DNA from: Synechococcus sp.
GTDB taxonomy: Bacteria > Cyanobacteriota > Cyanobacteriia > PCC-6307 > Cyanobiaceae
DNA: 64,000 bases
NCBI GenBank assembly: GCA_047285805.1
Contig: JBJBCN010000002.1
Span: 512,001 to 576,000 of the forward strand
Direction of reading: 5' to 3'
Part shown: piece by piece, positions 27,965 through 42,252 of the stretch
How the letters are laid out: each line of letters starts with the position of its first letter
Position numbering within the stretch: the first letter of the stretch is position 1
Program-made: the position numbers and the translations under genes
Notes under the pieces: model-generated
Database searches by the model: none
What the model saw: only the letters and a program-made list of their open reading frames with translations
What the model was told of the DNA's origin: nothing

Positions 27965-29242
27965 TTATCGCGCCCAGACGGTGGGGAGGTCGCTCAGTCG
28001 GGTGGTGGCGGCCCGCGAGAGTTGCTCCCGCCGCATTAACCACGCTGGCTGGAGCCCGCAGGCGGCCCACTGAACCGTCCCGCTGCCGTAGCGACGGTTC
28101 AGTTGATCGATGCTGGCCATGAGGGCCTCCCGGCGCTGCTGCTCGACCTGGCTGAGGGGTTGCAGGAGGTGGTGCTGAAGCTGACTCTCCGGTTGCAGGT
28201 CCTGCAGCAGGATTCCGGCCTTGGCAAAGCGTTTGTAGGGTCGATAAAGGCTGGGAACCATCTGGCAGGCCGCCCGCAGCAGGACGCCGGTGTCGTTGCT
28301 GGCCAGGGGAAGGCTGAGGCTGGCGGCTTGGCTGTAGAAGCCGGGGGCGAAGGGACTGGTGCGGGCAAACACCGTGAGCCGTCCAGCCCGTTGCCGTTGC
28401 CGCCGTAACTTCTCCGCGCCGCGGCTGATGTAGCTGGCGACGGCTTGGCGCAGCTCTTCTTCGGTGGTGACGGGGCGGCTGAAGCTGCGGCTCACGCAGG
28501 TCTCCTGCTTCTCTCCGGCTTGCTGCTCCAGGGGCAGGCAGCTGATGCCCTGCAGTTCCAGTTGCAGGCGGAGGCCCACCACCCCGGCTTTAGCCCGCAG
28601 TTCTCCGCTGGGCATGTCCCGCAGTTGCTGCGCCGTACTGATACCCCGCAGCCGGCACCAGCGGCTCAGGCGCCGGCCGACACCCCAGAGTTCCTCCACT
28701 GGGGTTCGCTCCAGCCAGCTCGTAGTCTCCCCGGGGATGCTGAGGTCAAACACCCCTGCGTGTTGCCGATCCCCCTTGGCGATGTGGTTCGCCACTTTGG
28801 CCAGCACTTTGCTGGTGGAGAGTCCGATGGCAATGGGCAGGCCCAGGTTGTGGCGGATCCGGCCGCGCAGGGCTGTGGCCCAGGGAATGAGGTCGCCGTT
28901 GTTCGGTCTAGGCAGACGGATGAAGGCTTCATCGATGGAATAGACCTCCAGCTCGGCGACGAAGGGCTCCAGGCTGCTCATCAGCCGATTGCTCATGTCG
29001 CCATAGAGCGCGTAGTTGGAGCTGCGTACGACCACGCTGTGCCGTTGGAGGTGGTCGGCGATCTGGAAGTAGGGCTTGCCCATGCCGATGCCGAGTTGTC
29101 GGGCCTCACTGCTGCGGGAGACCACGCAGCCGTCGTTGTTGGAGAGAACCACGACGGGGCGGCCCAGCAGTGCTGGGTCGAAGGCCTGCTCACAGCTGGC
29201 ATAGAAGTTGTTGGCATCGATCAGCCCGAGGGCATCAGCCAT
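27965..29242 (-). CDS. umuC: Y-family DNA polymerase V subunit
   Basis: DANNFYASCE, LSNNDGC, YSIDEAF. Confidence 0.95.
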   Translation of the reverse strand: MADALGLIDANNFYASCEQAFDPALLGRPVVVLSNNDGCVVSRSSEARQLGIGMGKPYFQIADHLQRHSVVVRSSNYALYGDMSNRLMSSLEPFVAELEVYSIDEAFIRLPRPNNGDLIPWATALRGRIRHNLGLPIAIGLSTSKVLAKVANHIAKGDRQHAGVFDLSIPGETTSWLERTPVEELWGVGRRLSRWCRLRGISTAQQLRDMPSGELRAKAGVVGLRLQLELQGISCLPLEQQAGEKQETCVSRSFSRPVTTEEELRQAVASYISRGAEKLRRQRQRAGRLTVFARTSPFAPGFYSQAASLSLPLASNDTGVLLRAACQMVPSLYRPYKRFAKAGILLQDLQPESQLQHHLLQPLSQVEQQRREALMASIDQLNRRYGSGTVQWAACGLQPAWLMRREQLSRAATTRLSDLPTVWAR

Positions 29243-29714
29243 GGGCGGAGAGGCTATGAATGGCGTGGATCGCCACCCCCCAGATCTGGACGTCGCTGCA
29301 GTGGTGTAATTCGAGCGGGGGATAGGCGTTGTTGGCGGCCTCGAGCCGCAATCGGCCTTGGTGCCGGGCGAGGCGCTTCAAGGTGAAGGCGCCATCAAGC
29401 ACGGCTACGACGATCTGGCCCGGCCTGGCTTCGAGGCTGCGGTCCACGACCAGCAGATCACCGTGCTGGATTCCGGCGTCAACCATTGAATCGCCGCTCA
29501 CCCGCAGGAAGAAGGTGCTGTTGGGGTGGCGGATCAGGGTTTCGTTGAGGTCGATGCCGACATCCATGTAGTCATCGGCCGGACTGGGGAAGCCTGCCGC
29601 CACGGTGCTGGTGGCATGGGGCAGCCTCAGCTCCTGGGGCTCCTCCCGCGGTTGGCCCAAGAGTTGCGGCGGGCCGTCGGAGGACAGAGGGGCAGGCAAG
29701 GCCACGGGCACCAC
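29235..29714 (-). CDS. umuD: DNA polymerase V subunit UmuD (S24 peptidase)
   Basis: AAGFPSPA cleavage site, VSGDSM, FTLKRL. Confidence 0.95.
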   Translation of the reverse strand: MVPVALPAPLSSDGPPQLLGQPREEPQELRLPHATSTVAAGFPSPADDYMDVGIDLNETLIRHPNSTFFLRVSGDSMVDAGIQHGDLLVVDRSLEARPGQIVVAVLDGAFTLKRLARHQGRLRLEAANNAYPPLELHHCSDVQIWGVAIHAIHSLSAHG

Positions 29715-29728
29715 AGAGACCTTTACGA

Positions 29729-29744
29729 TAGTCCATCTGTACTA
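29729..29744 (-). promoter_or_regulatory. cyanobacterial LexA box upstream of umuDC
   Basis: Minus strand TAGTACAGATGGACTA, one mismatch from the AGTAC-N3-TGTACT type palindrome, just upstream of the umuD start. Confidence 0.75.
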
Positions 29745-29755
29745 GTCGCGGATGT

Positions 29756-30193
29756 CTAGACCTCCTCGTCCCCCTCCAGAAGCAGTTGCTGGAAGGCCAC
29801 GTAGAGGTCCTGTTCCTCGCTGTTGGCGGGGTGGTGGCGCTGTTTATTGGGCCGCAGTTCCTGGGGTTTGCCTTGGGCTTGCAAGCCGCCGGTAAGGCGG
29901 TTGGTTTGGCTTTGGAGGGCCTGCAGTTGCTCCCGCTGGGCGGCCTGGCGCTTGCGTTCTTGATCGCTTTCGGCCTGGCGGAGGCGATCCATGAGATGGG
30001 GCGGCACCGTGCCGTCCTCGCTGGCCTTCATCAGCTCGCCAAAGAGGGCCTGGGGATCCGTTTCGGTCTCAACGCGATGGCGTTTGCCGGACGCCCCCTT
30101 GGTGTCCTCGTGGCGCTCTGCCTTGGGGAGAGGTTTTGGCAGGGAGCGGCCCAGTTCTTGGAGCCGCTCCAGGCTGCGGGCATCGAAGCTCAT
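29756..30193 (-). CDS. conserved hypothetical protein
   Basis: MSFDARSLERLQELGR...HRVETETDPQALF..S.DGTVPPHL. Confidence 0.75.
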   Translation of the reverse strand: MSFDARSLERLQELGRSLPKPLPKAERHEDTKGASGKRHRVETETDPQALFGELMKASEDGTVPPHLMDRLRQAESDQERKRQAAQREQLQALQSQTNRLTGGLQAQGKPQELRPNKQRHHPANSEEQDLYVAFQQLLLEGDEEV

Positions 30194-30205
30194 GGTCGGA
30201 TGGCG

Positions 30206-30703
30206 TCAGCTGCACTCAAGGGTGTCTTTGGTGGCACGACCGGTGACCGGGTTCATGCCGCTGGCGCTGGCGCAGAGGGTTTTCAGGACGTCGCCGCGGA
30301 ACGGCACGTTGGTGAAGTCCGCACCTTCGATCAGGACATCCTTAAAGCGCGTGTTGAAGGCAAAGGCGTTCTCCAGCACCGCATTACGCAGGTCCGTTCC
30401 ATCGAGGACGGCTGAATCGAGGGTGGCGTCACTCAGGTCGGCGCCCGAGAGGTTGGCGTCCTGGAGCTTGGCGCCGTAGAGGCTGGTGCCACGCAGGTCG
30501 GCCCCTTGGAAATCGGCTTCCCGCAGGTTCGTCAGGTTGAAGGTGGCGCCGTGCAGGTCGACGCCAGCAAAGTCATGGCCGATCAGCACCTGCTTGGCGT
30601 AGTCCATGGCCGCCTGCGCCGGCTGGGCCGGGTGGAGAGCCGCACTGACGAGCAGCAGGGCCAGCAGCGCGGAGCGAAACAGTGCTCGGAAGAAGCGACG
30701 CAT
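30206..30703 (-). CDS. pentapeptide repeat protein (secreted/lumenal)
   Basis: Signal peptide followed by ADLRG/ANLSG/ADLSD repeats. Confidence 0.92.
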   Translation of the reverse strand: MRRFFRALFRSALLALLLVSAALHPAQPAQAAMDYAKQVLIGHDFAGVDLHGATFNLTNLREADFQGADLRGTSLYGAKLQDANLSGADLSDATLDSAVLDGTDLRNAVLENAFAFNTRFKDVLIEGADFTNVPFRGDVLKTLCASASGMNPVTGRATKDTLECS

Positions 30704-30777
30704 GGTGGAGAGCCGGTGTCGAGAAACCCTAGGCAGGGCGCCTTGGGAATTCTGAGCAGGGATACAGGCTGCGGCTG

Positions 30778-30926
30778 ATGGGGCGATTCGAGTCGCAACG
30801 GCGGGGCGATTGGGCGGAACAGCGGGCCCTGCGCTTGCTGCGGGCTGCGGGTTGGAACCGACTCTCCCAGCGTTGGCATTGCCGCTGGGGGGTAATGGAT
30901 TTGCTGCTCCATACACCGCAACGGCT
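30778..30926 (+). pseudogene. yraN: YraN-family nuclease, 5' fragment interrupted by the element
   Basis: GDWAEQRA..L...GW...RWHCRWGVMDLLL is the YraN N-terminus; similarity ends at the att core. Confidence 0.85.
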
Positions 30927-30951
30927 GCTATTGGGTGACTACTTGCAAAAA
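30923..30951. repeat. left attachment site (core plus P-arm)
   Basis: GGCTGCTATTGG, overlapping TTGGGTGACTACTTGCAAAAA (30931-30951), which is a 17/21 inverted match to 39937-39957. Confidence 0.85.
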
Positions 30952-31042
30952 GGCTTAAAGTCAGTCCACAAGTGCCTTTTGGGCTGACTGCGATATGCAC
31001 GGTGGCTCTGTCGCCAAGACCAGTGGAGCCAATCCTGTGGCG

Positions 31043-32715
31043 ATGAACAAGCTGGTCGCGATCTCCTATGCGCGTGTTTCGACCGGCAAGCAGTCGGAGG
31101 AGAGCGCGAGTGGATTGGAGCGTCAGGAGTTAGCCATTGCTCGCTGGCTTGAAGCGCACCCTCAGTACGAACTGGACCGCGAGATCAAGGCAGTCGGCTG
31201 GGCGCGAAAGCGGGACGTTTTGAGTGGTTCATCAAGGAGCTTCAGGAGGGCCGACTGCCACAAGGCACCTGCCTTGTGGTGGAGAAGATCAGCCGGTTCT
31301 CCCGAGAGCCTGTAATGGAGGTGCTGGAGACCCTCATTCGGCTGTTTCGAGCTGGGGGGTGCGTAGCGGCTTGCGAGTTGGGGGGTGAGGTGCTGAGCAA
31401 CTTGGACGGTCAAAACGGCGCTGTTTTCATGCTTGTGGGGGCGATACAGCGGGCTCGGGGTGAGTGGGAGGAGAAGCGGGACCGTGCTGCTGGCAGCAGT
31501 GCGAAGCAACGTCGATTGATCGCAGAGGGTGAATAGCCTTTCAGGGCAGGACAGAAGGGCAAGCGAGCTGACTACCCCTTCTGGCTGGACTTCAACCCCG
31601 ATGCCGGCCAGTTCGAACTGAACCGGCATGCCGAGTGGTTACGCCAAGCCTTTTTGTGGGCTCCTGAAGTGGGCAGCACTGTCATTGCTCGCAAGCTCAA
31701 GGAGATGGGCGTGCGTTCTCCCTCTGATGGACGCAAGGTCCTTTCGCACAAGCGCATTACCCGGCTCTTGAAAGACCGCGCAGTACTTGGGGAGCGGCAA
31801 TTCGTTGATGCCCGCCACAACCCCGTGGGCGAGCCAATTCGTGGGGTTTATCCGCCCGTGGTGACCGAAGACGAGTGGCGTCTTGCGAGAACTGCCATAG
31901 AGGCTCGTTTTGGAGGAAATCGGCGAACAGGCACAAAGCACCACTTGCTTTTTGAAGGCCAAGTTTTTTGTGCCCACTGCGGAGGCACCGTTGGCGTGGA
32001 CCGCCAAACCAGGCAATTGGCGGGGGGCGGATCGAAGGTTTACGAGTACCTGCGGTGCAGGCAGCGGGATAAAGACAGCAGCCTTTGCGAGGCACCAGCG
32101 CAGCATCCCTACGACGAAGAACGCATGCTTCGGCGTCTACATGATTTTCGGTGGGCGGAATTCTTCAGCGATGAGAAGCACGAAGCCGAAGTGACGGCAG
32201 CGCGGAAGCAAGTGCTATGTGCCCAAGGGCATCGGAGTGATGTTGAACGTGACTTGACCAACCTCAGAACCGCGGCACTTGAGCAGGCGAAAGCAGGCGG
32301 AACTGTCAGTGCCTGGCTGGAACACGAAGCAAAGAAGTTGGAGCAGGCGTTTTCAGATGCTCAGGCGGCTGAGAACGTCGCAATCAGCGCTTTAGGGAGC
32401 CTTGAACGGCGCAGAACGGGTACAGACGCCCAACGGGCTATCCGGAAGCGTGTTGAGGCTTTCGTGGCCTCAGACAGGCAAGACGTTCAGCAGCGCAAAG
32501 CGTTTATCCAGTGGCTCTCGTCAGAAGAGCTGGTGATCGAGTTCAACCTCGAGACAGGAACGATGGAGCTTGGGGTCGGTCAGGTTGCTTCTGACGGCCG
32601 CTTGGTTGCACTGGATATGCGGCTTGAAGATGCGGCGGCCTTTGGGCTCCCCGTCGAGGAGTTCCGGGCATTCATCAAGGAGAGGGATGAAGCGATTGCA
32701 GCCCAGCTCCAATAG
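31043..32715 (+). pseudogene. large serine recombinase (integrase) with a frameshift and an internal stop
   Basis: YARVSTGKQ catalytic Ser; frameshift near 31199; LVVEKISRFSRE; in-frame TAG at 31534-31536; recombinase domain YPPVVTEDEW; Zn ribbon CAHCGG...YLRC...C; coiled coil. Confidence 0.9.
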
Positions 32716-32770
32716 GCCCTCTTGCAAGAAACTGTTGCGCGCTTAAACGGCCGTGGACACACTGAAGCTC

Positions 32771-33007
32771 GTGCGTCCCACGAATCTGGTCGGTCCTTAC
32801 CGCCAGGCTCGTCCTAGTGGATGCGCCCCCCTTGCGCTGACGGCAACACCAAGGCCATAACCGCTGAGGACACGGTCCGAGAGAACCCCGTGATCCGAGA
32901 CGGGGGAGTGCCAAGCTCCCCCAACTCAACACTCCCCGCTACTGAGCAGTGGGTCGGGGAGCTGTTGTGCTTGTTATCAGTGACCTTGATCCTTGGCGGC
33001 GAGGGGG
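32771..33007 (+). ncRNA. candidate structured non-coding RNA
   Basis: Multiple nested helices found by eye, several with G-U pairs on the + strand; no convincing ORF. Confidence 0.45.
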
Positions 33008-33047
33008 AGGAGAGATGAGCGCAACCCAGGAGTTAGCAGGCCATATG

Positions 33048-33797
33048 TCAGAGCTTGGATTCTTCTGGAACCTCCCTTGAGGACGGAACTCGTGGAGCCA
33101 CATGCAACGACTTTTTCTTTCTTCCGTCAGATGAGGGCTGCCAATCTGAATAAACAACCTTCCAAGCTTTGACGGTTTCTGGACCAATCTCATTGATCCT
33201 TAGACCGGTGGATCCATCATTTGAAAGCAAGACAAAAGCTTTTCCATTCACCATGTCGTAGTTAGCCAAAGCGGCCGCAATTTCTTTGTTGACCCTAAAA
33301 ACGCCATCGCACCCATTAACAACCAGATAGCCGTCACCATTCTTGATTCCAAAAGACTGAATTGACTCACTACCAGTGGTCACGCGTCGACCGAAAGACT
33401 TATTGGCAACAGTTTCTTGCCTGACCCGGATTGTGTTCCGACCAAAGAACGAAGCAACCCTGAAGGATTTATTGTAATTGCGGTCAAATACACCAATCGT
33501 CGTCCCGGTGATTGGGTTTTTCAGGATTACTGGTTTGGAAAGAGGGAATTTGGTGCTCTCAAGGTCTTGCGACCTCCAGTCTTCGGTAATAGTGAAAACT
33601 TCGACGCCGGGAAAGACCCTGGGTAGCTTCTCTGGTTCATATTGAATGTATTCTTCGGTTCTATATGGCGAACATAGAAGGAGCTCCTCCTTTAATGCAT
33701 CGCCGTATTTCTTTGGCGATATTTCATATGCCGCTGCAGGCAATGAAGAGGCGAGAAGTGTTGCGCCAGCAAGGGTTAGCGGAGCGAGGGAGCGCAT
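33048..33797 (-). CDS. secreted hypothetical protein (element cargo)
   Basis: 249-aa AT-richer ORF with signal peptide MRSLAPLTLAGATLLASSLPAAA. Confidence 0.75.
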   Translation of the reverse strand: MRSLAPLTLAGATLLASSLPAAAYEISPKKYGDALKEELLLCSPYRTEEYIQYEPEKLPRVFPGVEVFTITEDWRSQDLESTKFPLSKPVILKNPITGTTIGVFDRNYNKSFRVASFFGRNTIRVRQETVANKSFGRRVTTGSESIQSFGIKNGDGYLVVNGCDGVFRVNKEIAAALANYDMVNGKAFVLLSNDGSTGLRINEIGPETVKAWKVVYSDWQPSSDGRKKKSLHVAPRVPSSREVPEESKL

Positions 33798-33859
33798 AGG
33801 CTTCTTTTTTCTATATTTAAGCTAGCATCACTTCTGTAGTCACTTGTGGGTGAAGGCCG

Positions 33860-34138
33860 ATGATCGCCTCTGGGCTTGTGGTGTCAGCGCTATTTGGGAT
33901 TGCACTGCTGAGCGCTGAATCGCCGGCGAACGCGGCTCCTTCAGTCTTGGTGAAGAGCGGCGTCAACTGCCCTGGAAGCTACGTAAAAGCAGGGAGAGGC
34001 AAGAATTGCCAAGCAGCGCCCGAATATGTAGACATCACCTATCTCGGAGAGAATATAAGGGAATCCTGTAAGCCCACCTACACCCGTCTTAATGCTGGCG
34101 ACAGCAAGTGGTGCGTAAAATACAGCGAGCAATACTAA
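33860..34138 (+). CDS. small secreted Cys-paired protein (element cargo)
   Basis: Signal peptide ending ANA; two C-x2-(S/T)Y...C units. Confidence 0.65.
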   Translation: MIASGLVVSALFGIALLSAESPANAAPSVLVKSGVNCPGSYVKAGRGKNCQAAPEYVDITYLGENIRESCKPTYTRLNAGDSKWCVKYSEQY

Positions 34139-34196
34139 TGCGCTCGGATAACTTCACTTGCAAGAGTGATGGGTTGACGTGTATTTGCATCCGCAA

Positions 34197-34547
34197 CTAC
34201 CTCCTTCTCGCCTTCTGCATTGCTTGTTCAATCAGAATCCATTCCGCTGCGGTGTGACGTGTCTTCCACCCGTACTGCTCGCATAGCGCGTTGCAATAGT
34301 CCCCAATCCGCAGGATCGTCTCCAGGTCAACGCGGCTAAGCCTCTCCTTAGCCACCACGTTCCGGTCGCTCCAGTTCACCACCTGAGCAACGCGCTCCCG
34401 TAGCCCATTCATCTCCAGCTGCCGATGACCTCTCTCATTCAGTGAAATGAAGTCATCCAGGTAGCCGTCATCCATCAAGTTCTGAAGGCTTGAACGACTC
34501 CGATATCCCAGCTCTCTTGCTGCCGCCGCAATGCTCTTAATGGCCAC
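34197..34547 (-). CDS. HTH DNA-binding protein, possibly terminase small subunit (Nu1-like)
   Basis: N-terminal SIAAAARELGYRSRSSLQNLMDDG winged-HTH-like segment; lies downstream of a cos-like motif. Confidence 0.55.
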   Translation of the reverse strand: MAIKSIAAAARELGYRSRSSLQNLMDDGYLDDFISLNERGHRQLEMNGLRERVAQVVNWSDRNVVAKERLSRVDLETILRIGDYCNALCEQYGWKTRHTAAEWILIEQAMQKARRR

Positions 34548-34611
34548 TATTCGCTAAATCTCAGCGCCTAAACCAGCCTAAGGAATTTTGCACTGACGCT
34601 AGATGAGACAT

Positions 34612-34653
34612 GCGCTTTCGGATGACCCGCAATAAAGCAAATAGCAAGGACCC
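34612..34653 (-). other. lambda-type cos-like packaging signal
   Basis: Minus strand GGGTCCTT-GCTATTTGCTTTATT-GCGGGT-CATCCGAAAGCGC; GGGTCCT is the lambda cosQ sequence. Confidence 0.45.
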
Positions 34654-34710
34654 TGCAAATACGTCATTGGATACTGATTTATTGGCTTATGGGTGTGACT
34701 GAAGAAATAA

Positions 34711-34736
34711 AAAGCCCCTGCGTTTGCAGGGGCTTT
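34711..34736 (-). terminator. intrinsic terminator of the beta-barrel cargo gene
   Basis: Perfect AAAGCCCCTGC/GCAGGGGCTTT stem with adjacent A-run. Confidence 0.85.
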
Positions 34737-34770
34737 AGGTGGCTAGCCTACCACCTTCTAATGCATAATG

Positions 34771-35727
34771 TCAGCACCGCAATATCCACGGTATGTATGG
34801 ATCCAGGTAATGGCAATTATCGTGCACCCGCACATCCCTGTTACTAGGCGTTGATGTTAGGGCTTTAGCAGCGGCATTGGTTTTCGGTGTTTCTTTGCCA
34901 GGACCGCCATTGGTATTGAAGCGCCACTTGATATCAGCGGAGAAGCGTGACTTGAAGGCACTGTCATAAGAGAGGTTGGTGCCAACGGTTAGTCCGTTGT
35001 TGATGGCATAAGCCAGACGACCCAAGACGCCAGAGCCATCGGCATCGCCTGCATCGCCGTTTTGGTAGTAGTAACCGACAGAGGCTCTTAAGGCTGGCGT
35101 CAGGTTGTAACCAGCATCTAAGCCATAGGTGTCCAGTGCACCGCCTTGATAGACGGTGTTGAGCTGTTGCTCGGTGTCACCCGTTGGAATGAGCGCATAG
35201 GCATTGAAGTTCCACTTATCGCTCATCGCTTCTGCATTGACGGCAGCCTGCTGGAAGAAAGCCGTGCGTGAGGCATAGACAGGGATGCCTGTATCGGCAT
35301 CACCCGTGCTCATTGGTCGGGTGTCATAGCCCGCATTCAGTCCATACATCCAACTGCGGTCACCATTGAGCCAGCGATAGCCCAGGCGGGCTGAGGTGGA
35401 GATGGTGGTGCCAGCAACGGTGGTGTTGATGATGCTGCTGCTGTTACCCCAGTCCGACAAGTTGGCATTCGCCAAGACATCAGCAAAGAAGATGCTGTTG
35501 CTGCCGACCACCAGTGGAAGGAAGCCACCCAGACCGGCTTGGTTGGGGGTGCCAGCGGCTTGGGTTTGCGCATGGATGCCGACTTGAGGTTTGACGATGT
35601 CCTTGAGCTGAATGCTCATCACGCCTAGGTCACTGGCGCTGCCATGCCCATCAGCTTGTGCAGGGAGAGTGGCGACTGCGAATGCAGATGCCACCAACCC
35701 GATTGATAAAGGACGCAGCATCAGCAC
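34771..35727 (-). CDS. outer-membrane beta-barrel protein (inverse-autotransporter beta-domain-like picocyanobacterial family)
   Basis: Signal peptide; GTPNQAGLGGFLPL, STSARLGYRWL, GLNAGYD and alternating beta-strand pattern; ends NRDVRVHD plus a short Cys tail. Confidence 0.75.
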   Translation of the reverse strand: MLMLRPLSIGLVASAFAVATLPAQADGHGSASDLGVMSIQLKDIVKPQVGIHAQTQAAGTPNQAGLGGFLPLVVGSNSIFFADVLANANLSDWGNSSSIINTTVAGTTISTSARLGYRWLNGDRSWMYGLNAGYDTRPMSTGDADTGIPVYASRTAFFQQAAVNAEAMSDKWNFNAYALIPTGDTEQQLNTVYQGGALDTYGLDAGYNLTPALRASVGYYYQNGDAGDADGSGVLGRLAYAINNGLTVGTNLSYDSAFKSRFSADIKWRFNTNGGPGKETPKTNAAAKALTSTPSNRDVRVHDNCHYLDPYIPWILRC

Positions 35728-35780
35728 TGGTGGGCAGTTGGGGTGATGGTGACCTACTTACGGTGACTTGTCGTGAGAAA

Positions 35781-35807
35781 GCCCGAGGGGGCATCACTCC
35801 CTCGGGC
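35781..35807 (-). terminator. hairpin after the capsid gene
   Basis: GCCCGAGGG/CCCTCGGGC stem with a short A-run on its left. Confidence 0.6.
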
Positions 35808-35837
35808 GGAACTGCACCACTGCAGGAGCTCTCGCGG

Positions 35838-37436
35838 TTATGCGATCGCGTCCTGCATCGCAGCGAAGCTTTCAGGGTGTCTGACGGCGATATCGATCGA
35901 CTGCAGCGCTCGGATGCCAGTCGTGCCCTTGGCGAAGTCGGTGTAGGAGTCCACCAGGATTCCCAAGGTGCCGTACAGGCCAATCAGCAGGTCGCTGAAG
36001 TTGCCGTAGACGATCGCGCTCAGGTTGGTGCCAGTGCCCTTGCTCAAGTTGCTCGGGACGTTGTTGCTGACCTCGAAGCGACGTCCAGCAATCTGCGAGC
36101 GGCCTAGCTAAGTGCCATAAGGCGAAAGCAGGTACTGGTCTTGGGAGTCCTTGAGCTTGGAGAGGACTGCTTCCACCTTGGCGTTGGTGAGGAAGCCGCA
36201 GCTAGCGACATCAGCGTTATCGACGGCCACCTCCTTCTTGAGGTCCATCAGGTGATCGAGGGTCGGAGCCAAGCCATTGGTCCCGCCCGCAACAGAGCCA
36301 ATGCCTGTGGTGTTCAAGATCCCTGTGGGTTGGTTGCTACTGCCACTGCCGTTGATGGCAGCGGTGTCGATTGCATCGGCCAGCAGCGCAACGAAGTCAG
36401 CACGGATCAGCTGCTCGATGTCCGGGGTGCTTTGCAGGTTCATCAGGTGAGAGAACTTGCTAAGTGCACCAACGGTCTTGGGGGTCATCGTCACGGTGCC
36501 GATGGTCCCGGTGCTTTCGGTGACGCTGTCGCTGTCATCAGCACCAAACCAATAGGCAGTCGCAGTGCCTGTTCTCTTGGGGATGCTCACGTCGCCCACC
36601 AAGCCGCCAAGGAAGGTGGCGCCAAGCTCGGCAACGGCCAAGCGATCACGCAGCGCCTCAATGAAACTGGTCGCCAGGTGATCGGTAGCGATCAGGTTGC
36701 CGCCGGCGCTTGCGGTTCCCGCCACATAGGTGCGTTTCTTCCAGCCGTTATCCGGGACAAAGAAGCCTTGAGTACGCCGCCCATTGCGGTGCTCAAGCTC
36801 TTGGTTCACCTCAGCTTCTCGGCCGCTCAGCCCCCGACCTGAGGAGATGCCTTGCGCAGCGCGGACGATGCTGAACTGCTCGGCCTCTCGCCGGTACTCG
36901 GCATCAGGGTCAAGGCCAATGGGGGAAATCGGTTCGTAGGTCATTGGTGTGTGAGTCGTAGTTGGTAGGGCGCGGTTCACGCCAATCGATGCGTCGGCCG
37001 GGATGCTCACGACGCTCAGCTCAATCGGTTGCCAGCGAGTGACGCGCATCACGCCTGCGTCCTGCTCGGCATCCAGCACGGAGTAGCCGACCGAGATGTT
37101 GGGCCTCACGCCTGCTTCAACGTCCTTGCGCACTTGCCTGGCGAGGTCGTTTGTGGCCCAGGTGATGCGGGCCATGCAGCGGCGTCTCTCATCGATCCAT
37201 GCCCGCTCGACAATCCCGAGGATTCGATCCGGGTCGTGGTTCAGCAGCAGTGGTGCTGCGCCTCCATTCAGCCGAGTGAGGTCGACCGCTTCTCGGTCGT
37301 GATCCAACACCTCATCACCGAAGTATCGAGTGACAGGTGTTTCCGAGCTGAATGAGAACTCAAGCTGATTGGAGTCAGCTTTGGTGTCATCGATCGTGAG
37401 ATAACGCCGCTGGATTTCGGCGGCGATGGTTGTCAT
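35838..37436 (-). pseudogene. fused HK97-type prohead protease plus major capsid protein, one in-frame TAG at 36108-36110
   Basis: Protease motifs FSFSSETPV, LLLNHD, ISVGY, ELSVVSIPAD; capsid motifs GGNLIATD, DTAAINGSG, KLKDSQDQYL; the frame continues after TAG with LGRSQIAGRRFEVSNNVP...YGNFSDL...DIAVRHPESF. Confidence 0.9.
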
Positions 37437-37657
37437 TGACTCCCTCTATAGAGAGGTCTCGTAGATAACGACGTTGCTGAGCGCTAGCGAGGCAATCTTC
37501 CAAGGGATTTGGAACCCTTGGCATGTCGTCATCGACGAGTGATTTCATGTCCAATGCTAGAGATATATCTACTCCGATAATAGTCGCTTCTCTAAATACG
37601 CCTAATCAGTGTTAGTCAATGCTTCTGGGCGCCTGCAGAGGGGTTGCTGAGAGGAAA

Positions 37658-37753
37658 AAGAGGTTTAAGAGGTTAAAGAGGTTGCACCATCACACGCATG
37701 TATGGCTTTCTTGAAGTCAGACCCCTGTAGCGAGACAGCCTCTAAAACCTCTT
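37658..37753. repeat. iteron-like repeats, putative replication origin of the element
   Basis: AAGAGGTT x3 at 9-nt spacing (37658, 37667, 37676) and an inverted AACCTCTT at 37746. Confidence 0.6.
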
Positions 37754-37766
37754 TTCCCCTTAGTGG

Positions 37767-39137
37767 TCACCTGGTCAGTGCTTTAAGCACCTCATCGACT
37801 GGGCGAAAGAGGGCTGCGGGAGGCCCGCCTCGTTTCCCGTTTGATTGTTGGTAGCCGTCTTCAACGATCAGGTGTTTGCGCTCAAGGGCTTGCAATGCCT
37901 CTCGCGCCTTTGATGTGGCATGCACTTCAAGACCTAAGGCATTGCCTAGGTGAACCGCATCCATACCTTTCTTTGTCGATTGGTAGTGATCGCATAGGTC
38001 TGTCAGGGCCTTGTGCTGACGATCTGTGAGGTCGTCGAGTACTCCCTGAATCGCGGCTTTTCTTGCCACCTCCTCGCCGGATCCATGAAGGATCCAGCCA
38101 GCGTTTGTTTGCTCGATCAGCAAGTCGATCGGTGCAGCTTCACGACCCTCTGCCGCCAACCTGCTCCGCCTGTCTCGTTGAGCGAGCGGGTTGTCATCGC
38201 CGTCCCCAAGAGACGCGAGAGCCGCCGTTTGGGAAGCGGCTGCCGGCAGAGAGTTATTGCCTCGACTGGCCTCTGAGGCCCGCAATGCACCAGGCCGTTT
38301 TTTTGCGTGGTGGATCAAGAGCAGCGTCGCCTCGTGGGGAGCGAGCGCTTCTGTCAGATCGATGCAGGGGTCAGCAAAGGCGGCATCGCATTCCTGCAGC
38401 CCAAGCTTGCTGGTGCACGCGTGATAGCTGTCGACCAGAACAATCAGCCTTGGGTAGCGAAGGCAGTAGCCGACGATTTCCTCAATGCCTTCCTCGTCCA
38501 CATGGAGTGGTGCGCCCTTGTGGAAGAGGCCAACAATCGCCGGGTGCATGCTCCTGTCTGGGTTGAGCAGACCAGCGAGCTGAAGGCACTTTGCCCAATC
38601 CCGTTGCGGTTGGTCCGTTCCAACAATCAGAACCTTGGCGTCAGGCCATGGATGCAGGGCCTGTCCGAGAAACTCTGACTCCCCTCGGACTAATGCCCCG
38701 AGGACGGCACAAGCCAGTCGGCTTTTTCCCGTCTTTGGGGCACCGACAACAAGATTGCTCGTCCCTCGCAGCAGGATGTTCGACCAAAGCCAGGGTGCTT
38801 CTGCAAGCGAAAGCTTTCCGCCTTGCGGGATGGGTTCAGCAGCACCCACCAGCCTTCGCCGCTCTTGCCCAAGGAGGCGGCGAAGCTCGTCGTCTCGGAC
38901 GCGCGTCTGAAGTTCAGATGCGGTTCGGCGTAGGTGGATGAGTCGCTGATGGCTGGGAATGGCCTCATCGCAAAGAAGATCCCGCGTCTTCCTCTGCAGG
39001 GTGCGTAGGTCCTCTGCTGCCGATGGCTTGCGTCGAGGGGCGGGGTCAACGCGTTTGAGCTGACCCTGAACGCGTTGTTGCCGTTCCCTTTGATCAAACG
39101 CGTCTGAGTGGTCGAGCCATGCGAGTGGGTCGGTCAT
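37767..39137 (-). CDS. RepA-like AAA (AAA_25/RecA-fold) helicase with C-terminal HTH
   Basis: Walker A GAPKTGKS, Walker B LIVLVDSY, LLLIHHAKK, SRGNNSL; ATG overlaps the upstream TGA. Confidence 0.85.
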   Translation of the reverse strand: MTDPLAWLDHSDAFDQRERQQRVQGQLKRVDPAPRRKPSAAEDLRTLQRKTRDLLCDEAIPSHQRLIHLRRTASELQTRVRDDELRRLLGQERRRLVGAAEPIPQGGKLSLAEAPWLWSNILLRGTSNLVVGAPKTGKSRLACAVLGALVRGESEFLGQALHPWPDAKVLIVGTDQPQRDWAKCLQLAGLLNPDRSMHPAIVGLFHKGAPLHVDEEGIEEIVGYCLRYPRLIVLVDSYHACTSKLGLQECDAAFADPCIDLTEALAPHEATLLLIHHAKKRPGALRASEASRGNNSLPAAASQTAALASLGDGDDNPLAQRDRRSRLAAEGREAAPIDLLIEQTNAGWILHGSGEEVARKAAIQGVLDDLTDRQHKALTDLCDHYQSTKKGMDAVHLGNALGLEVHATSKAREALQALERKHLIVEDGYQQSNGKRGGPPAALFRPVDEVLKALTR

Positions 39138-39355
39138 CGGGACCTCCTCGCCCATTCGGCCATTCGGAGGCAGCCAATCGGGTCTTGGTGCTCCAAAAGG
39201 GCTGCTGCTCGGTCGTAATCCGCTGCTGACCAAGCTGGTTCGCTGCTGAGACGCAGCAGCGTGCCGGTCAGATCAACTGAGTCCAGAGGTCGCGAAAAAT
39301 CTCCGTAATGCCGCCAGCGATAACGAGTAACGGTAATTAGGGTGTCATCAGACAT
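39134..39355 (-). CDS. hypothetical protein of the element
   Basis: ATGA-coupled to the helicase gene. Confidence 0.55.
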   Translation of the reverse strand: MSDDTLITVTRYRWRHYGDFSRPLDSVDLTGTLLRLSSEPAWSAADYDRAAALLEHQDPIGCLRMAEWARRSR

Positions 39356-39419
39356 TTGTTCGTGACTCCCAGCCCCAACTGGGGGTTTTTTCATTTTTCG
39401 AGAACCTCGATTCGTTGGG

Positions 39420-39662
39420 TCAGGGCTGAAATCCGGTCTTGAGGTGGGCGCTCACCTCTTGGGCCAAGTCACGGGCGGCTTCGCTGGAAGTGCGATTGAC
39501 GACGACCGCCTCCTGCAGCTGACCAACAGCGGCAAGCATTGCGGTGGTGCTATCGATCAAGCGGCGTTCGAGTTCTGTTGATGCCAAAGGCATCAGCTCC
39601 TCGCGCCAGGCATCGCATTGCGTCTGGACGCGTTCCGCCGTCCAAAAAATGTCCGCTTTCAC
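39420..39662 (-). CDS. hypothetical helical protein of the element
   Basis: GTGA-coupled to the upstream RHH gene. Confidence 0.55.
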   Translation of the reverse strand: MKADIFWTAERVQTQCDAWREELMPLASTELERRLIDSTTAMLAAVGQLQEAVVVNRTSSEAARDLAQEVSAHLKTGFQP

Positions 39663-39850
39663 TTGGCTGCTCCTTTTTTGAGCTCTTCCTCCTGGTGCGC
39701 GAGGGCAAAGATCACCATTGCTCTGAGTAGCTCCGCTCGACGGACCCTGTAAGCGGCCGCCAAGGCATCTACGCGAGCTGCGGTCGGTTGGTCGATGTCA
39801 CACGAGAGCCTCACGTCCCGTGATGGCCTCACTGGCAGTTGAACGGTCAT
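39659..39850 (-). CDS. ribbon-helix-helix (CopG-like) regulator
   Basis: VRLSCDIDQPTAARVDALAAAYRVRRAELLRAMV is a beta-helix-helix pattern. Confidence 0.7.
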   Translation of the reverse strand: MTVQLPVRPSRDVRLSCDIDQPTAARVDALAAAYRVRRAELLRAMVIFALAHQEEELKKGAAK

Positions 39851-39936
39851 GGTTCCAAGTTCTGGACCGAAGTACGAACCAGTGTGTGGAACGTTCAGTA
39901 GCCCTGCAGTGCAGTCGATCTCAGCCGAGTGAATGC

Positions 39937-39971
39937 TTTTCGCAAGTAACCAACCAAGAGGCTGCTGTTGG
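39937..39971. repeat. right attachment site (P-arm plus core)
   Basis: TTTTCGCAAGTAACCAACCAA followed by GA-GGCTGCTGTTGG. Confidence 0.85.
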
Positions 39972-40063
39972 TGGAGGTCAAAGTCCGGAACCGGAGTGGG
40001 TCTGTGCCTTGGCACCCCTTGCCTCCCAGTCGCCGGCCCGTGCTTTGGCTGTCTTGGGCCTGA
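39962..40063 (+). pseudogene. yraN: YraN-family nuclease, 3' fragment
   Basis: LLLVEVKVR...PLPPSRRPVLWL; in frame with the 5' fragment after excision. Confidence 0.8.
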
Positions 40064-40112
40064 GCGGACCGGACTTGAAGCAATGTGGAGATAAGGCCTG
40101 CTCCGCTCACTG

Positions 40113-40925
40113 ATGTCCTTCGCGGCCCACCGTGCCCGCAAACGCTTTGGCCAGCACTGGTTGAAGGATCAGTCCGTGCTTGATCAGATCGTGCGGGCCG
40201 CTGAGCTGACCGCCGCGGACACCGTTCTGGAGGTGGGACCCGGTCGCGGAGCCCTGACGGAGCGGCTGCTGGATTCCGCCGCCAGCGCGGTTCATGCGGT
40301 GGAGCTGGATCGTGATTTGGTGGCAGGGCTTCAGGACCGCTTTGGCGCCAACCACCGCTTTGTGCTCACCGAAGGGGACGTTCTGGCCGTCGACCTGCCG
40401 GAGGCCACCGCCGTGGTCGCCAACATCCCGTACAACATCACAGGCCCTCTGCTGGAGCGCCTGGTGGGTCGCCTGGATCGCCCAGTGGCCGAGCCCTATC
40501 GACGCCTGGTCTTGTTGGTGCAGCAGGAGGTGGGAGAGCGGATTCGTTCCCGTCCCGGCAGCAGTGCCTTCTCAGCTCTAAGTGTGCGGATGCAGTTGTT
40601 AGCGCGCTGCAGCACGGTCTGCCCGGTCCCGCCTCGCTGCTTTCAACCGCCTCCGAAGGTGATGAGTGAGGTGGTGGCCCTCGATCCACTGCCTGTGGAG
40701 CAACGGCTGGATCCCGCCCTGGCCAAAACGGTGGAGATGCTTCTCAGGCGCTGCTTTGCTGCCCGCCGCAAGATGTTGCGCAACACACTCTCGGGTTTGG
40801 TGGATCCGGAGCAGCTGTTGGCCCTTACCGAGGAGGCGGAGATTGGCCTGCAGCAGCGTCCCCAGGAGGTGGCACCCGAGGATTGGGTGCGACTCGCGGC
40901 GGGCTTGAATCGGCTCACGTCCTAA
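40113..40925 (+). CDS. rsmA: 16S rRNA dimethyladenosine transferase
   Basis: [25 protein letters not shown]. Confidence 0.96.
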
Positions 40926-40941
40926 GCAACGCACCCTCGCC

Positions 40942-41874
40942 ATGGCAGAGCTGCAGGCCAGCGCCCCCGCCAAGATCAACCTGCATCTCGAGGTGCTCGG
41001 CCTGCGCCCCGACGGCTTTCACGAGCTGGCGATGGTGATGCAGACCTTGGATTTGGCCGACAGCCTCAGCCTGCGGCCCACGGCTGACGGGGCGGTGACC
41101 CTCCGCTGCGGATGTGCGGACCTGCCCACCGACGGCAACAACCTGATCGTTAAGGCGGCCGAGTTGATCAAACGACGGGTCGGCTTGCCTGAGCTGGGCG
41201 TTGCCATGGACTTGACGAAGCGCATTCCGATTGGCGCAGGTCTTGCGGGGGGCTCCAGCAATGGTGCAGCGGCCCTGGTGGGTCTAAACACTCTGTGGGG
41301 CTGTGGTTTCAGCAGCGCGCAGCTGGAGGCCATGGCCGCTGAGCTCGGCTCGGACATGCCCTTTTGCCTCGATGGTGGGACCCAGCTCTGCTTTGGCCGG
41401 GGAGAGGTCCTCGAAACCGCTGGCTTGGCCGAGCCGCCGGCTTTGGGGGTGCTGCTGATCAAGCATCCCGACGCGAGCGTCTCGACTCCCTGGGCCTATG
41501 AGCAGTGCCGTGAGCAATTCGGGGCGGACTACCTCTCGGGTGAGGAGGCCTTTGAGCAGCGCCGGCAGGCCCTGCGTCAAGCCCCCTTGCTCCAGGGCTT
41601 GAGCGGCAATGGGCCGCTTCCCGCCATACGCAATGACCTTCAGAAGGTGGTGGAGTCCGAGGTGACCAGTGTTCGAGAGGGCCTCTCGATCCTGCGGCGG
41701 GCCAACGGGGCGTTGGCGGTGGCCATGAGCGGTTCTGGGCCAAGCCTCTTCGCGGTGTTCCCCGATCGAGGGGGTGCGGATGCGGCCCAGAACCAGCTGG
41801 CTGAAGACCTGGCGGATGGCGGTTTCGAGTCCTGGGTCTGCCGCTGCACGGGCTCTGGTGCCACGCTGGTCTGA
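40942..41874 (+). CDS. ispE: 4-diphosphocytidyl-2-C-methyl-D-erythritol kinase
   Basis: [28 protein letters not shown]. Confidence 0.96.
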
Positions 41875-41883
41875 GCGCATCCC

Positions 41884-42252
41884 GTGCAATCCCGCGTGAG
41901 TGAGACCGAGAGCGATAGCCAAGACCTCGCTAAGGCGGAGAAGGCCGGCGACGCGGCGGTCTCCACGAAGTCGCGCAAGGGGCCGATCAGCTTTCTAAGC
42001 GGTTCATTGACCAGCTTTGGACTGGGCTGGTTGGCGCTGCAGTTGGCCATCAAGGTGGTGGGTTATTACGCCGAACATCCGCCCACCTACGAGGCGCGCT
42101 TTGCCCAGAGCATTGCTGTGTTCATGAAGACCCTGGGGGTTGGCATGAGTTTTTTGGCGACGTTCACCTTTGCCTTCGTTGGCCTGGGGCTGTTTTTGAC
42201 ATTTATCCGCAGCCTCTTACCGGGTTGGAAACAGGCGGAAGAAACCCCCTAG
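41884..42252 (+). CDS. DUF3082-family membrane protein
   Basis: KGPISFLSGSLT...LATFTFAFVGLGL. Confidence 0.8.
   Translation: MQSRVSETESDSQDLAKAEKAGDAAVSTKSRKGPISFLSGSLTSFGLGWLALQLAIKVVGYYAEHPPTYEARFAQSIAVFMKTLGVGMSFLATFTFAFVGLGLFLTFIRSLLPGWKQAEETP

Follow-up and report, generated by a model that had tools for sequence, protein, structure and literature searches.

A 9-kb integrative element with its own capsid gene in yraN of Synechococcus sp., probably a defective relative of PICI-like tycheposons

Picocyanobacteria rank with the most abundant phototrophs, and small integrative elements are believed to build their genomic islands. Capsid-forming phage-inducible chromosomal islands (cf-PICIs) reportedly have genes for a portal, head-tail connectors and a small terminase in addition to those for capsid and protease. 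For Prochlorococcus, the consulted part of Hackl et al. (10.1101/2020.12.28.424599) describes PICI-like tycheposons which carry either terS or the gene of the major capsid protein (MCP), are abundant in viral-fraction libraries and were never seen with cargo; tycheposons occur there in vesicles as well as in capsids, and 910 of the 937 elements have tyrosine recombinases, the other 27 having large serine recombinases. Tycheposon-like insertions in Synechococcus are mentioned in the portion of Grebert et al. that was covered. In the sections consulted of Eppley et al. 2022 (PMC9618062), the marine virion-encapsidated integrative mobile elements (VEIMEs) are described as small; they carry integrase and replication genes but no capsid genes, and one VEIME module is dominated by serine recombinases. 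Here we analyse a stretch of 64,000 nucleotides from Synechococcus sp. (assembly GCA_047285805.1, contig JBJBCN010000002.1, positions 512,001 to 576,000; “the window”), in which a large serine recombinase inserted a 9,037-bp element with its own capsid gene into the gene yraN at the core GGCTGCT. The element is probably an integrated and defective copy of a small picocyanobacterial replicative element that belongs to the MCP-type, PICI-like tycheposon lineage.

Like the PICI-like tycheposons, as far as the consulted text characterises them, the element is small and site-specific, has a primase/helicase module and carries a single packaging gene, a protease-MCP fusion, with no other virion gene. 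The replication module is shared with elements of the tycheposon kind, its RepA-like helicase being 69% identical to that of a tRNA-Pro/tyrosine-integrase element in G098, a genome of the same genus, and the capsid falls in one clade with Prochlorococcus copies in which helicase, capsid gene, small helix-turn-helix (HTH) gene and tyrosine integrase follow each other beside tRNA genes. The element differs from the tycheposons so described in its large serine recombinase and yraN target, which replace the tyrosine recombinase at a tRNA gene, and also in its cargo genes, its Synechococcus host and its defective state. The cf-PICIs likewise have their own HK97-type capsid and protease and would borrow helper tails, whereas no portal, connector or small terminase gene occurs in the element or in the 5 closest loci. 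VEIMEs, in the sections consulted, were recovered as concatemers from virions and have no capsid gene, whereas the present element has one. The head module of the cyanosiphoviruses S-LBS1, S-CBS1 and S-CBS3 contains the same fused protease-capsid; in S-LBS1 the fused gene stands after the small terminase (TerS), large terminase (TerL) and portal genes and before the tail genes, whereas that of the window follows a helicase gene and an origin-like region.

The locus lies between a pentapeptide-repeat gene and ksgA/rsmA in a host genome of 2.37 Mb (61% GC, 3 contigs), and the GC fraction drops from ~0.65 outside to 0.48-0.60 within the element. In two other genomes of the genus, G125 and G320, whose flanks are 91-93% identical, yraN is unbroken between the pentapeptide-repeat gene and ksgA, and the open reading frame (ORF) of G125 matches the Pfam family UPF0102 (E 3.6e-14). 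In the alignment to both genomes the left flank extends to 30929 and the right one starts at 39960, and the two share 7 bp, GGCTGCT. An empty site was also found in one seawater-metagenome contig (run X8), where 30922 is joined to 39960, 9037 bp are skipped and 7 letters fit both sides. From the flank alignments and this bridging contig, the size of the insertion is 9,037 bp (30923-39959). These empty sites confirm the discrete element of ~9 kb, integrated in yraN between att sites, which an earlier reading of the window from its letters (the original prediction) had placed at 30925-39963, within 4 bp of the boundaries determined here. The remnant of the 3' part of yraN lacks ~107 bp that are present in G125. 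The attP reconstructed from the core-flanking sequences is, in our reading of the alignment, an imperfect inverted repeat matching at 11 of 15 positions, and such repeats around the core are usual for serine-integrase sites. No tRNA and no tRNA-Pro fragment was found within the element, and the sole tRNA reported by ARAGORN in the window is a tRNA-Pro; a tRNA-Pro remnant adjoining the recombinase gene was considered and rejected, as no match exceeded 10 nt.

The capsid gene, a fusion of a prohead protease (S78) with an HK97-type major capsid protein, contains an in-frame TAG at 36108-36110, behind which the frame runs for 89 more codons to the normal end. Before the TAG the Phage_capsid match covers positions 1-192 of 280; with the part behind the stop included, the protein aligns end to end with five intact homologues, which themselves cover positions 1-279 of 280, and both profiles, HK97 capsid and S78 protease, are then represented in full. 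The position of the TAG is occupied by E, S, E, A and E in the five intact homologues. Compared with G098, the ratio of non-synonymous to synonymous substitution rates (dN/dS) of the capsid gene is 0.10 for the part ahead of the stop and 0.09 for the part behind it. The nearest named capsids are those of S-LBS1, S-CBS3 and S-CBS1, with 39% identity over 91-97% of the protein, and a catalytic-type protease domain and a full-length capsid domain are conserved across the clade. The fusion, which had been taken for a special trait of this locus, is the normal form in the cyanosiphoviruses of the S-CBS1/S-CBS3/S-LBS1 type and in all close relatives.

To place the element among its relatives, we used a sample of 301 genomes of the family, including the host genome (G000), of which 22 have a capsid match at E <= 1e-10. 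Five of the capsids are full-length and free of stops (G098, 93% identity; G144, 68%; G054, 60%; G188, 56%; G227, 52%), while most other matches are C-terminal fragments, e.g. four in G200 and two each in G216 and G095. Such fragments are often followed by a small HTH gene and integrase fragments (L174, L188 and L190), and it seems that deletion preferentially spares the part of these elements next to the integrase. The closest relative, in G098, has the order of the window: sec249 (92% identity), sec92 (92%), HTH116 (95%), a paralogue of the barrel gene (52%), capsid gene (93%), RepA (69%), orf86 (60%) and orf80 (69%). Beyond orf80 it has an HTH_17 protein, one ORF and a tyrosine integrase (phrog_1, 9.5e-12), and at its other end a tRNA-Pro(TGG). 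Since the synteny with the window starts 17 bp past the stop codon of the recombinase gene, the two elements differ by one cassette in a circular map, namely ribbon-helix-helix (RHH) gene, attP and serine recombinase in the window against HTH_17/excisionase (Xis) gene, ORF, tyrosine integrase and attP(tRNA-Pro) in G098. The loci of G144, G054, G188 and G227 are low in GC (Prochlorococcus-like), adjoin tRNA-Pro or tRNA-Ala and have the order helicase (AAA_25 or VapE), capsid fusion, small HTH gene and integrase-like gene. A wider scan of species genomes gave further copies in Synechococcus and Prochlorococcus single-cell genomes. In 14 of the 18 full-length capsid copies of picocyanobacterial loci, a RepA- or VapE-type helicase lies at most 2.5 kb upstream on the same strand; as for the other four, PHROGs give a helicase in L166 and a primase in L184, the helicase of L162 lies on the other side, and L158 has no helicase match by tblastn. 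A tyrosine-integrase match is nearby in 13 of the 18. The gene order is therefore conserved in other genomes, as the original prediction had supposed, with G098 collinear and the helicase upstream of the capsid gene in most copies. Besides, in Prochlorococcus sp. AG-388-A01 (L164) two helicase-capsid-integrase elements stand in tandem within 12 kb, with capsids of 56% and 53% identity.

The helicase belongs to a replication module that ends in an origin-like region. Right after the RepA stop codon there are 2-3 direct 9-bp iterons, a spacer of 50-60 bp and three inverted copies. The iteron unit of the window is AGAGGTT, while G098 and a second RepA locus of the host genome have AAAGGTT/GAAGGTT in the same layout, so that iteron sequence and RepA variant co-vary in all three loci. 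This co-variation supports an origin function, and the iteron region may well be the replication origin. The second RepA copy (84% identical) is located at C2:1337671-1339128. It lies in a mosaic island (C2:1328001-1346000; L003) which has this RepA with its own iteron origin and no capsid gene, together with three tyrosine-recombinase genes, a VapE-type primase/helicase and a remnant of a capsid-gene 3' end. The family of the helicase, phrog_30286, is also matched in the Prochlorococcus locus L161. At the attR end of the module, the RHH regulator had been foreseen; the gene is present there, and its identity is suggested by one Pfam match below threshold (RHH_1, 18.3 bits against a cut-off of 20.5 bits). 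Homologues of it adjoin ksgA in L201 (43%) and a recombinase gene in L223 (58%).

The plus-strand serine recombinase gene was likewise found as foreseen, with all three serine-recombinase domains (Resolvase, Recombinase and zinc ribbon; Pfam and PHROG), which are those of a large serine recombinase, but it is broken into three pieces. Homologues that are intact measure 556-593 aa, within the ~500-700 aa of this class. The lesions of the gene are a frameshift near 31190 and an in-frame TAG at 31534-31536; aligned with 17 intact homologues, it is frameshifted within the conserved VGSGAKAG and has the TAG in place of an invariant Lys (K-P-F). Contigs from run X1, which may be the source sample, have 0 differences from the window over 30700-32866 and 35896-38097; the lesions of recombinase and capsid gene are therefore not obvious assembly slips, and assembly errors are an unlikely source of the TAG codons and the frameshift. 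Some metagenome contigs show gaps over the stretch of the recombinase gene, and these might reflect alleles that are intact. With the frameshift and TAG in the recombinase gene, the TAG in the capsid gene and the decayed yraN remnant, this copy is dead or dying. All six segments shared with G098 have a dN/dS of 0.03-0.19; such low values, including that of the capsid part behind the stop, indicate that the decay is recent relative to the divergence from G098. The suggestion that the element builds or remodels capsids does not hold for this degraded copy, which cannot now do either.

Relatives of the recombinase come mainly from metagenomes. No homologue was found in the 44 other species genomes of the genus (E <= 1e-20), matches in the family sample reach only 35-37% identity, and a scan of genome contigs with the single recombinase protein gave 53 pattern matches with no relative among them. 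In a collection of 5.8 billion proteins, 47 homologues were obtained at E <= 1e-30; the closest foreign one is intact, 556 aa long and 78% identical, and ~40 have 40-58% identity and lengths of 556-627 aa. A profile scan of metagenome contigs for this family gave 21 loci. It turned out that the family adjoins yraN fragments in four independent contigs: the 5' half of yraN stands at the recombinase-proximal junction, as in the window, in L205/L206 (near-identical), L211 and L216, and the 3' half, inverted, in L220. Another 6-7 contigs (L208, L210, L212-L215, perhaps L207) share a second flank ending ...CACCAGCCCGTTG, while L209 has a different flank and L204, L217 and L221 are too short for a flank call. 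The core of the second flank (...CACCAGCCCGTTG; L208, L210, L212-L215) resembles the yraN core (AACGGCTGCTGCTGGTG).

Capsid genes lie near recombinases of this family in three contigs, L205 (377 aa), L218 and L219; none was detected in L214, which extends 3.2 kb beyond the recombinase gene on the downstream side. L205 has the layout of the window, i.e. yraN fragment, recombinase (+), small ORFs including an RHH-fold protein, capsid (-) and primase/helicase (-). L218 has an exact terminal overlap of 110 bp and is 100% identical to L219 in permuted order, the two coming from two samples, and together they define one circular molecule of 9,119 bp. It encodes a serine recombinase, a capsid, a protease-like gene that in L218 follows the capsid ORF (split, not fused), a large replication protein and a phrog_1924 protein. 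The replication protein (~1,200 aa) spans the contig ends, phrog_1924 is a “minor tail protein” homologue, and a 12-bp perfect inverted repeat precedes the recombinase gene in L218/L219. The recombinases of L205 and L218/L219 have 44-55% identity to the C-terminal recombinase piece of the window. In L223 the RHH gene (58% identical to that of the window) immediately precedes the recombinase gene and no yraN sequence separates them, as would be expected of an excised circle. L205 and L218/L219 thus share with the window the recombinase family and a size of ~9 kb, and L205 also the yraN target and layout. More remote is the small element of G183 (L154), at another site, with a DUF3854/AAA_25 protein, a 336-aa capsid and a 622-aa serine recombinase that is 33-38% identical to the recombinase pieces of the window. 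The capsids of L205 and G183 are unfused and that of L218 is split, and all of them are more distant than the close clade of the window; the replication proteins in the group of L205, L218/L219, G183 and L182 (a sister locus described below) are primase/helicase fusions, and G183 and L182 have more distant or unrelated recombinases and other integration sites. Since the serine-recombinase relatives carry more distant capsids, the exact combination of the window is so far a single case. Besides, in Synechococcus AG-670-B23 an RHH gene (43%), a VapE helicase and the beginning of a capsid gene adjoin ksgA at a contig end, and a serine recombinase stands on a separate small contig.

One other origin for such an element is an ordinary temperate siphovirus from which the genes for portal, terminase, tail and lysis have been deleted. 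The visible decay of this copy would agree with it, as would the descent of the nearest named capsids, at 39% identity, from temperate-type cyanosiphoviruses. Searches with Pfam, PHROGs and tblastn gave no portal, TerL, TerS or tail gene in the element, in agreement with the earlier statement that portal, TerL and tail genes are lacking. The TerL, portal, tape-measure and tail-fibre proteins of S-LBS1, used as queries, matched in none of 24 picocyanobacterial loci, and L184 had a partial match to the TerS of S-LBS1, while in the positive control a portal was found in 74 of 80 IMG/VR contigs with related capsid fusions, the capsid gene of the 6 misses lying within ~600 bp of the contig start. 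If the locus were a deleted prophage, its homologues should consistently carry portal, TerL or tail genes, and this comparison speaks against deletion. In the intact G098 element and in 14 of the 18 capsid copies it is a helicase, not a portal, that lies upstream, where 74 of the 80 viral contigs have a portal, and the viral contigs gave no helicase or integrase match from the query set. In a FastTree phylogeny of 100 capsid proteins, all 18 chromosomal copies form one clade of their own (SH-like support 99; the inner 16 at 100), and S-LBS1 with 48 viral contigs forms a separate clade (100). Moreover, the att sites bound exactly 9,037 bp, and a relative exists as a 9,119-bp circle. The sister locus L182 lends this origin some weight, as PHROG scans of five more loci found TerL (phrog_38, 4e-81) and a partial portal-like match in it only; L182 apart, the loci searched gave neither the structural-gene remnants nor the homologous full prophages that mark a defective prophage. 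We consider a deleted prophage quite improbable. L182 itself, from a cyanobacterial metagenome-assembled genome of Lac Pavin, has a large serine recombinase, RepA, the capsid fusion, HTH_17, a portal-like gene, a sigma factor and TerL in one 12-kb stretch, and may be a relative of fuller gene content or else a small prophage. Still less credible, and in our view hardly worth entertaining, is that amber suppression or recoding lets both broken genes be read through, so that recombinase and capsid would still function. Both in-frame stops are indeed TAG, but the homologues have sense codons at both sites, the recombinase gene is also frameshifted and the only tRNA found in the window is tRNA-Pro; on the homologue alignments, the two TAGs were rejected as signs of recoding.

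A different reading takes the element for an integrative replicon that is no phage satellite: its capsid-protease would be an anti-phage decoy, a poison subunit which spoils the heads of related siphoviruses, or have another role at the level of the cell, and transfer would go by vesicles or other routes. In favour of it, the searches of the element gave neither a TerS gene nor a pac or cos site, the viral contigs yielded no close relative, purifying selection acts on the capsid genes while they are in cells, and tycheposons are reported from vesicles too in the consulted part of Hackl et al. (10.1101/2020.12.28.424599). Yet the conserved protease and full-length capsid domains exceed what a decoy needs, the sizes of 9.0-9.1 kb and the circular form fit a packaged genome, and the same part of that report has PICI-like tycheposons abundant in viral-fraction libraries, and so this reading seems unlikely to us. 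We consider the defective MCP-type, PICI-like element likely in spite of several points that weigh against it. The close capsid clade has mostly tyrosine integrases, and the metagenomic serine-recombinase relatives carry distant, unfused or split capsids; no viral-contig relative exceeds ~59% identity and none has helicase or integrase neighbours; the element gave no TerS gene that could confer packaging specificity and no pac/cos site; signs of excision, induction, encapsidation or a helper were obtained neither for it nor for its close relatives; L182 with TerL and a portal-like match makes a prophage ancestry possible for the wider group; and the capsid tree is a FastTree phylogeny whose groups were defined by source. 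A scan of viral contigs with the single capsid protein gave 4 pattern matches and no relative, and the host genome, in which a resident helper prophage was sought, has no match to TerS, TerL, portal or tape-measure genes of the S-LBS1 type at E <= 1e-3. A satellite-like reading is reasonable on the whole; the satellite lifestyle, the helper and any remodelling of capsids are inferences.

As such a satellite, intact relatives would excise on infection by an S-CBS1/S-LBS1-like siphovirus, which is put forward as helper because the nearest capsids are in that phage group. The excised element would replicate from its own origin, and the self-scaffolding protease-capsid protein, with portal, terminase and tail of the helper, would package the ~9-kb genome, at a cost to the helper. 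The copy of the window would no longer excise or be packaged, and would persist as a fixed island with its cargo genes under purifying selection. The locus shows that the capsid-carrying branch of such elements is also present in marine Synechococcus. Its whole integration cassette can be exchanged, from a tyrosine integrase at a tRNA to a serine recombinase at a protein-coding gene, and capsid-carrying elements can bear surface-protein cargo. The unusual part is the integration cassette and its target, both of which recur in metagenomes. Among the best-ranked papers of our literature search, judged in part by title and abstract, we found none naming a serine-recombinase/yraN cassette joined to capsid genes, the supplements of Hackl et al. 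and the Cell 2023 version lying outside its coverage, and the serine-recombinase plus MCP type may already be catalogued there. The proposal of an undescribed subfamily stands as far as the cassette with capsid genes recurs in metagenomes, and falls short in that MCP-carrying and large-serine-recombinase elements are already reported in the consulted part of Hackl et al. A bolder proposal, which we put forward tentatively and hold to be rather doubtful, is that the ~9-kb serine-recombinase elements (window, L205 and the circular L218/L219) are a distinct family of minimal capsid-forming satellites of Synechococcus/Cyanobium. Its RHH-attP-serine recombinase cassette would target a short core in protein-coding genes (yraN in either orientation and the second flank), its self-scaffolding capsid would build a head sized for 9 kb, portal, terminase and tail would come from S-CBS1-like siphoviruses, and outer-membrane and secreted cargo would alter the cell surface visible to phages. 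Intact relatives (G098, the metagenomic recombinase family and the 9.1-kb circle) and candidate helpers (S-CBS1/S-LBS1-like) make the satellite lifestyle testable, and the recombinase family with its ~40-bp attB in yraN is a candidate tool for site-specific integration in Synechococcus.

Table 1. Features of the element and its yraN flanks, in positions of the window
Feature	Position	Strand	Evidence or remark
yraN (UPF0102) 5' part, ending in attL core GGCTGCT (30923-30929)	30778..30929	+	Aligned to intact yraN of G125/G320
Large serine recombinase, pseudogene	30995..32715	+	Resolvase + Recombinase + Zn_ribbon_recom, phrog_95
Non-coding repeat	32732..32966		~20 genome copies (blastn); 86% identical to L037 6443-6777
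Cargo sec249, 249 aa, signal-peptide-like N-terminus	33048..33797	-	92% identical in G098, dN/dS 0.056
Cargo sec92, 92 aa, signal-peptide-like N-terminus	33860..34138	+	92% identical in G098, dN/dS 0.11
HTH116, small DNA-binding protein, MerR/Xis-type winged HTH N-terminus	34197..34547	-	Alignment, AlphaFold 2, Foldseek
Intrinsic-terminator-like hairpin after barrel gene	34711..34736	-	11-pair stem, 7 GC pairs, T-run; strongest of the region
Cargo, predicted outer-membrane beta-barrel protein	34771..35727	-	Multi-copy island family
Prohead protease (S78)/HK97-type major capsid fusion, pseudogene	35838..37436	-	Peptidase_S78 + Phage_capsid, phrog_617 4e-90
Origin-like iteron region	37437..37766		AGAGGTTWA x3 at 37650-37683, inverted copies 37739-37758, then conserved capsid-gene leader
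RepA-like replicative helicase	37767..39155	-	AAA_25 2e-13, phrog_30286 3.3e-79; start probably internal ATG at 39155
Small ORF (orf86), 86 aa, conserved with RepA	39134..39394	-	60% identical in G098, 80% in own second copy
Small ORF (orf80), 80 aa	39420..39662	-	69% identical in G098, 66% in L157
Putative RHH regulator at attR end	39659..39850	-	RHH_1 E 0.0022, below cut-off
attR core GGCTGCT (39960-39966) and yraN 3' remnant, ~107 bp lost	39960..40112	+	39960-40000 = L043 1353-1393; 39993 onward = L043 1501 onward

Of the cargo, the 249-aa protein has no Pfam or PHROG match, and the protein atlas gives only unnamed cyanobacterial clusters for it; the 92-aa protein has no family match in Pfam or PHROG. 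Elsewhere in the host genome the family of the predicted beta-barrel protein is represented by 10 more copies that are complete or nearly so and by one that is split, with 58-94% identity and mostly in islands. These proteins of ~300 aa are without a Pfam family, and copies cluster at C2:1134990-1152989 and C2:153503-155899. The atlas neighbours of the barrel protein are cyanobacterial clusters, one with IAT_beta in 43% of its members, and the paralogue in G098 has a weak OMP_b-brl match. The window, G098 and L157 each have a gene in the slot between the capsid and HTH genes; since L157 has a SepF-domain gene there, this slot takes cargo.

The small HTH gene had been called TerS-like, a likeness that was not borne out. 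HTH116 has no Pfam, PHROG or TerS match, and its AlphaFold 2 model (pLDDT 75.5 overall, ~88 for residues 1-50) resembles in Foldseek, over the first ~55 residues and weakly, MerR, BldC and RacA (E 0.05-0.2). The family shares just an N-terminal domain of ~65 residues, and a sequence search of the PDB with the HTH116 profile gave implausible matches only (Pumilio, ribosomal proteins). The modelled fold of HTH116 agrees with an excisionase- or AlpA-like protein no less than with TerS. An HTH116-like or HTH_17-like match lies downstream of the capsid gene in 13 loci.

The motif once read as cos-like coincides with the terminator-like hairpin at 34736-34711 (11 pairs and a T-run), which belongs to a 3' flank common to other copies of the barrel gene. 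Rfam gave for 29000-42000, at E <= 0.1, a single snoRNA-like match below threshold, which we regard as chance. The ~120-bp part of the non-coding repeat at 32848-32966 has ~20 copies in the genome with 72-95% identity and no Rfam match. Another locus of the host genome, C2:290001-302000 (L005), by a tRNA-Pro(TGG), contains a decayed HTH116 (83%, several in-frame stops), the last 26 capsid codons and the same 235-bp repeat as after the recombinase gene of the window, and looks like the wreck of a tRNA-Pro-type capsid element. The 6,832-bp contig C1 (44.8% GC; L004) was considered as an excised element or plasmid and rejected, being without a replication or capsid gene. It encodes a TPR/glycosyltransferase-41 protein, a methyltransferase and a YadA-like repeat protein, and is probably an unplaced cell-surface island rather than a plasmid.

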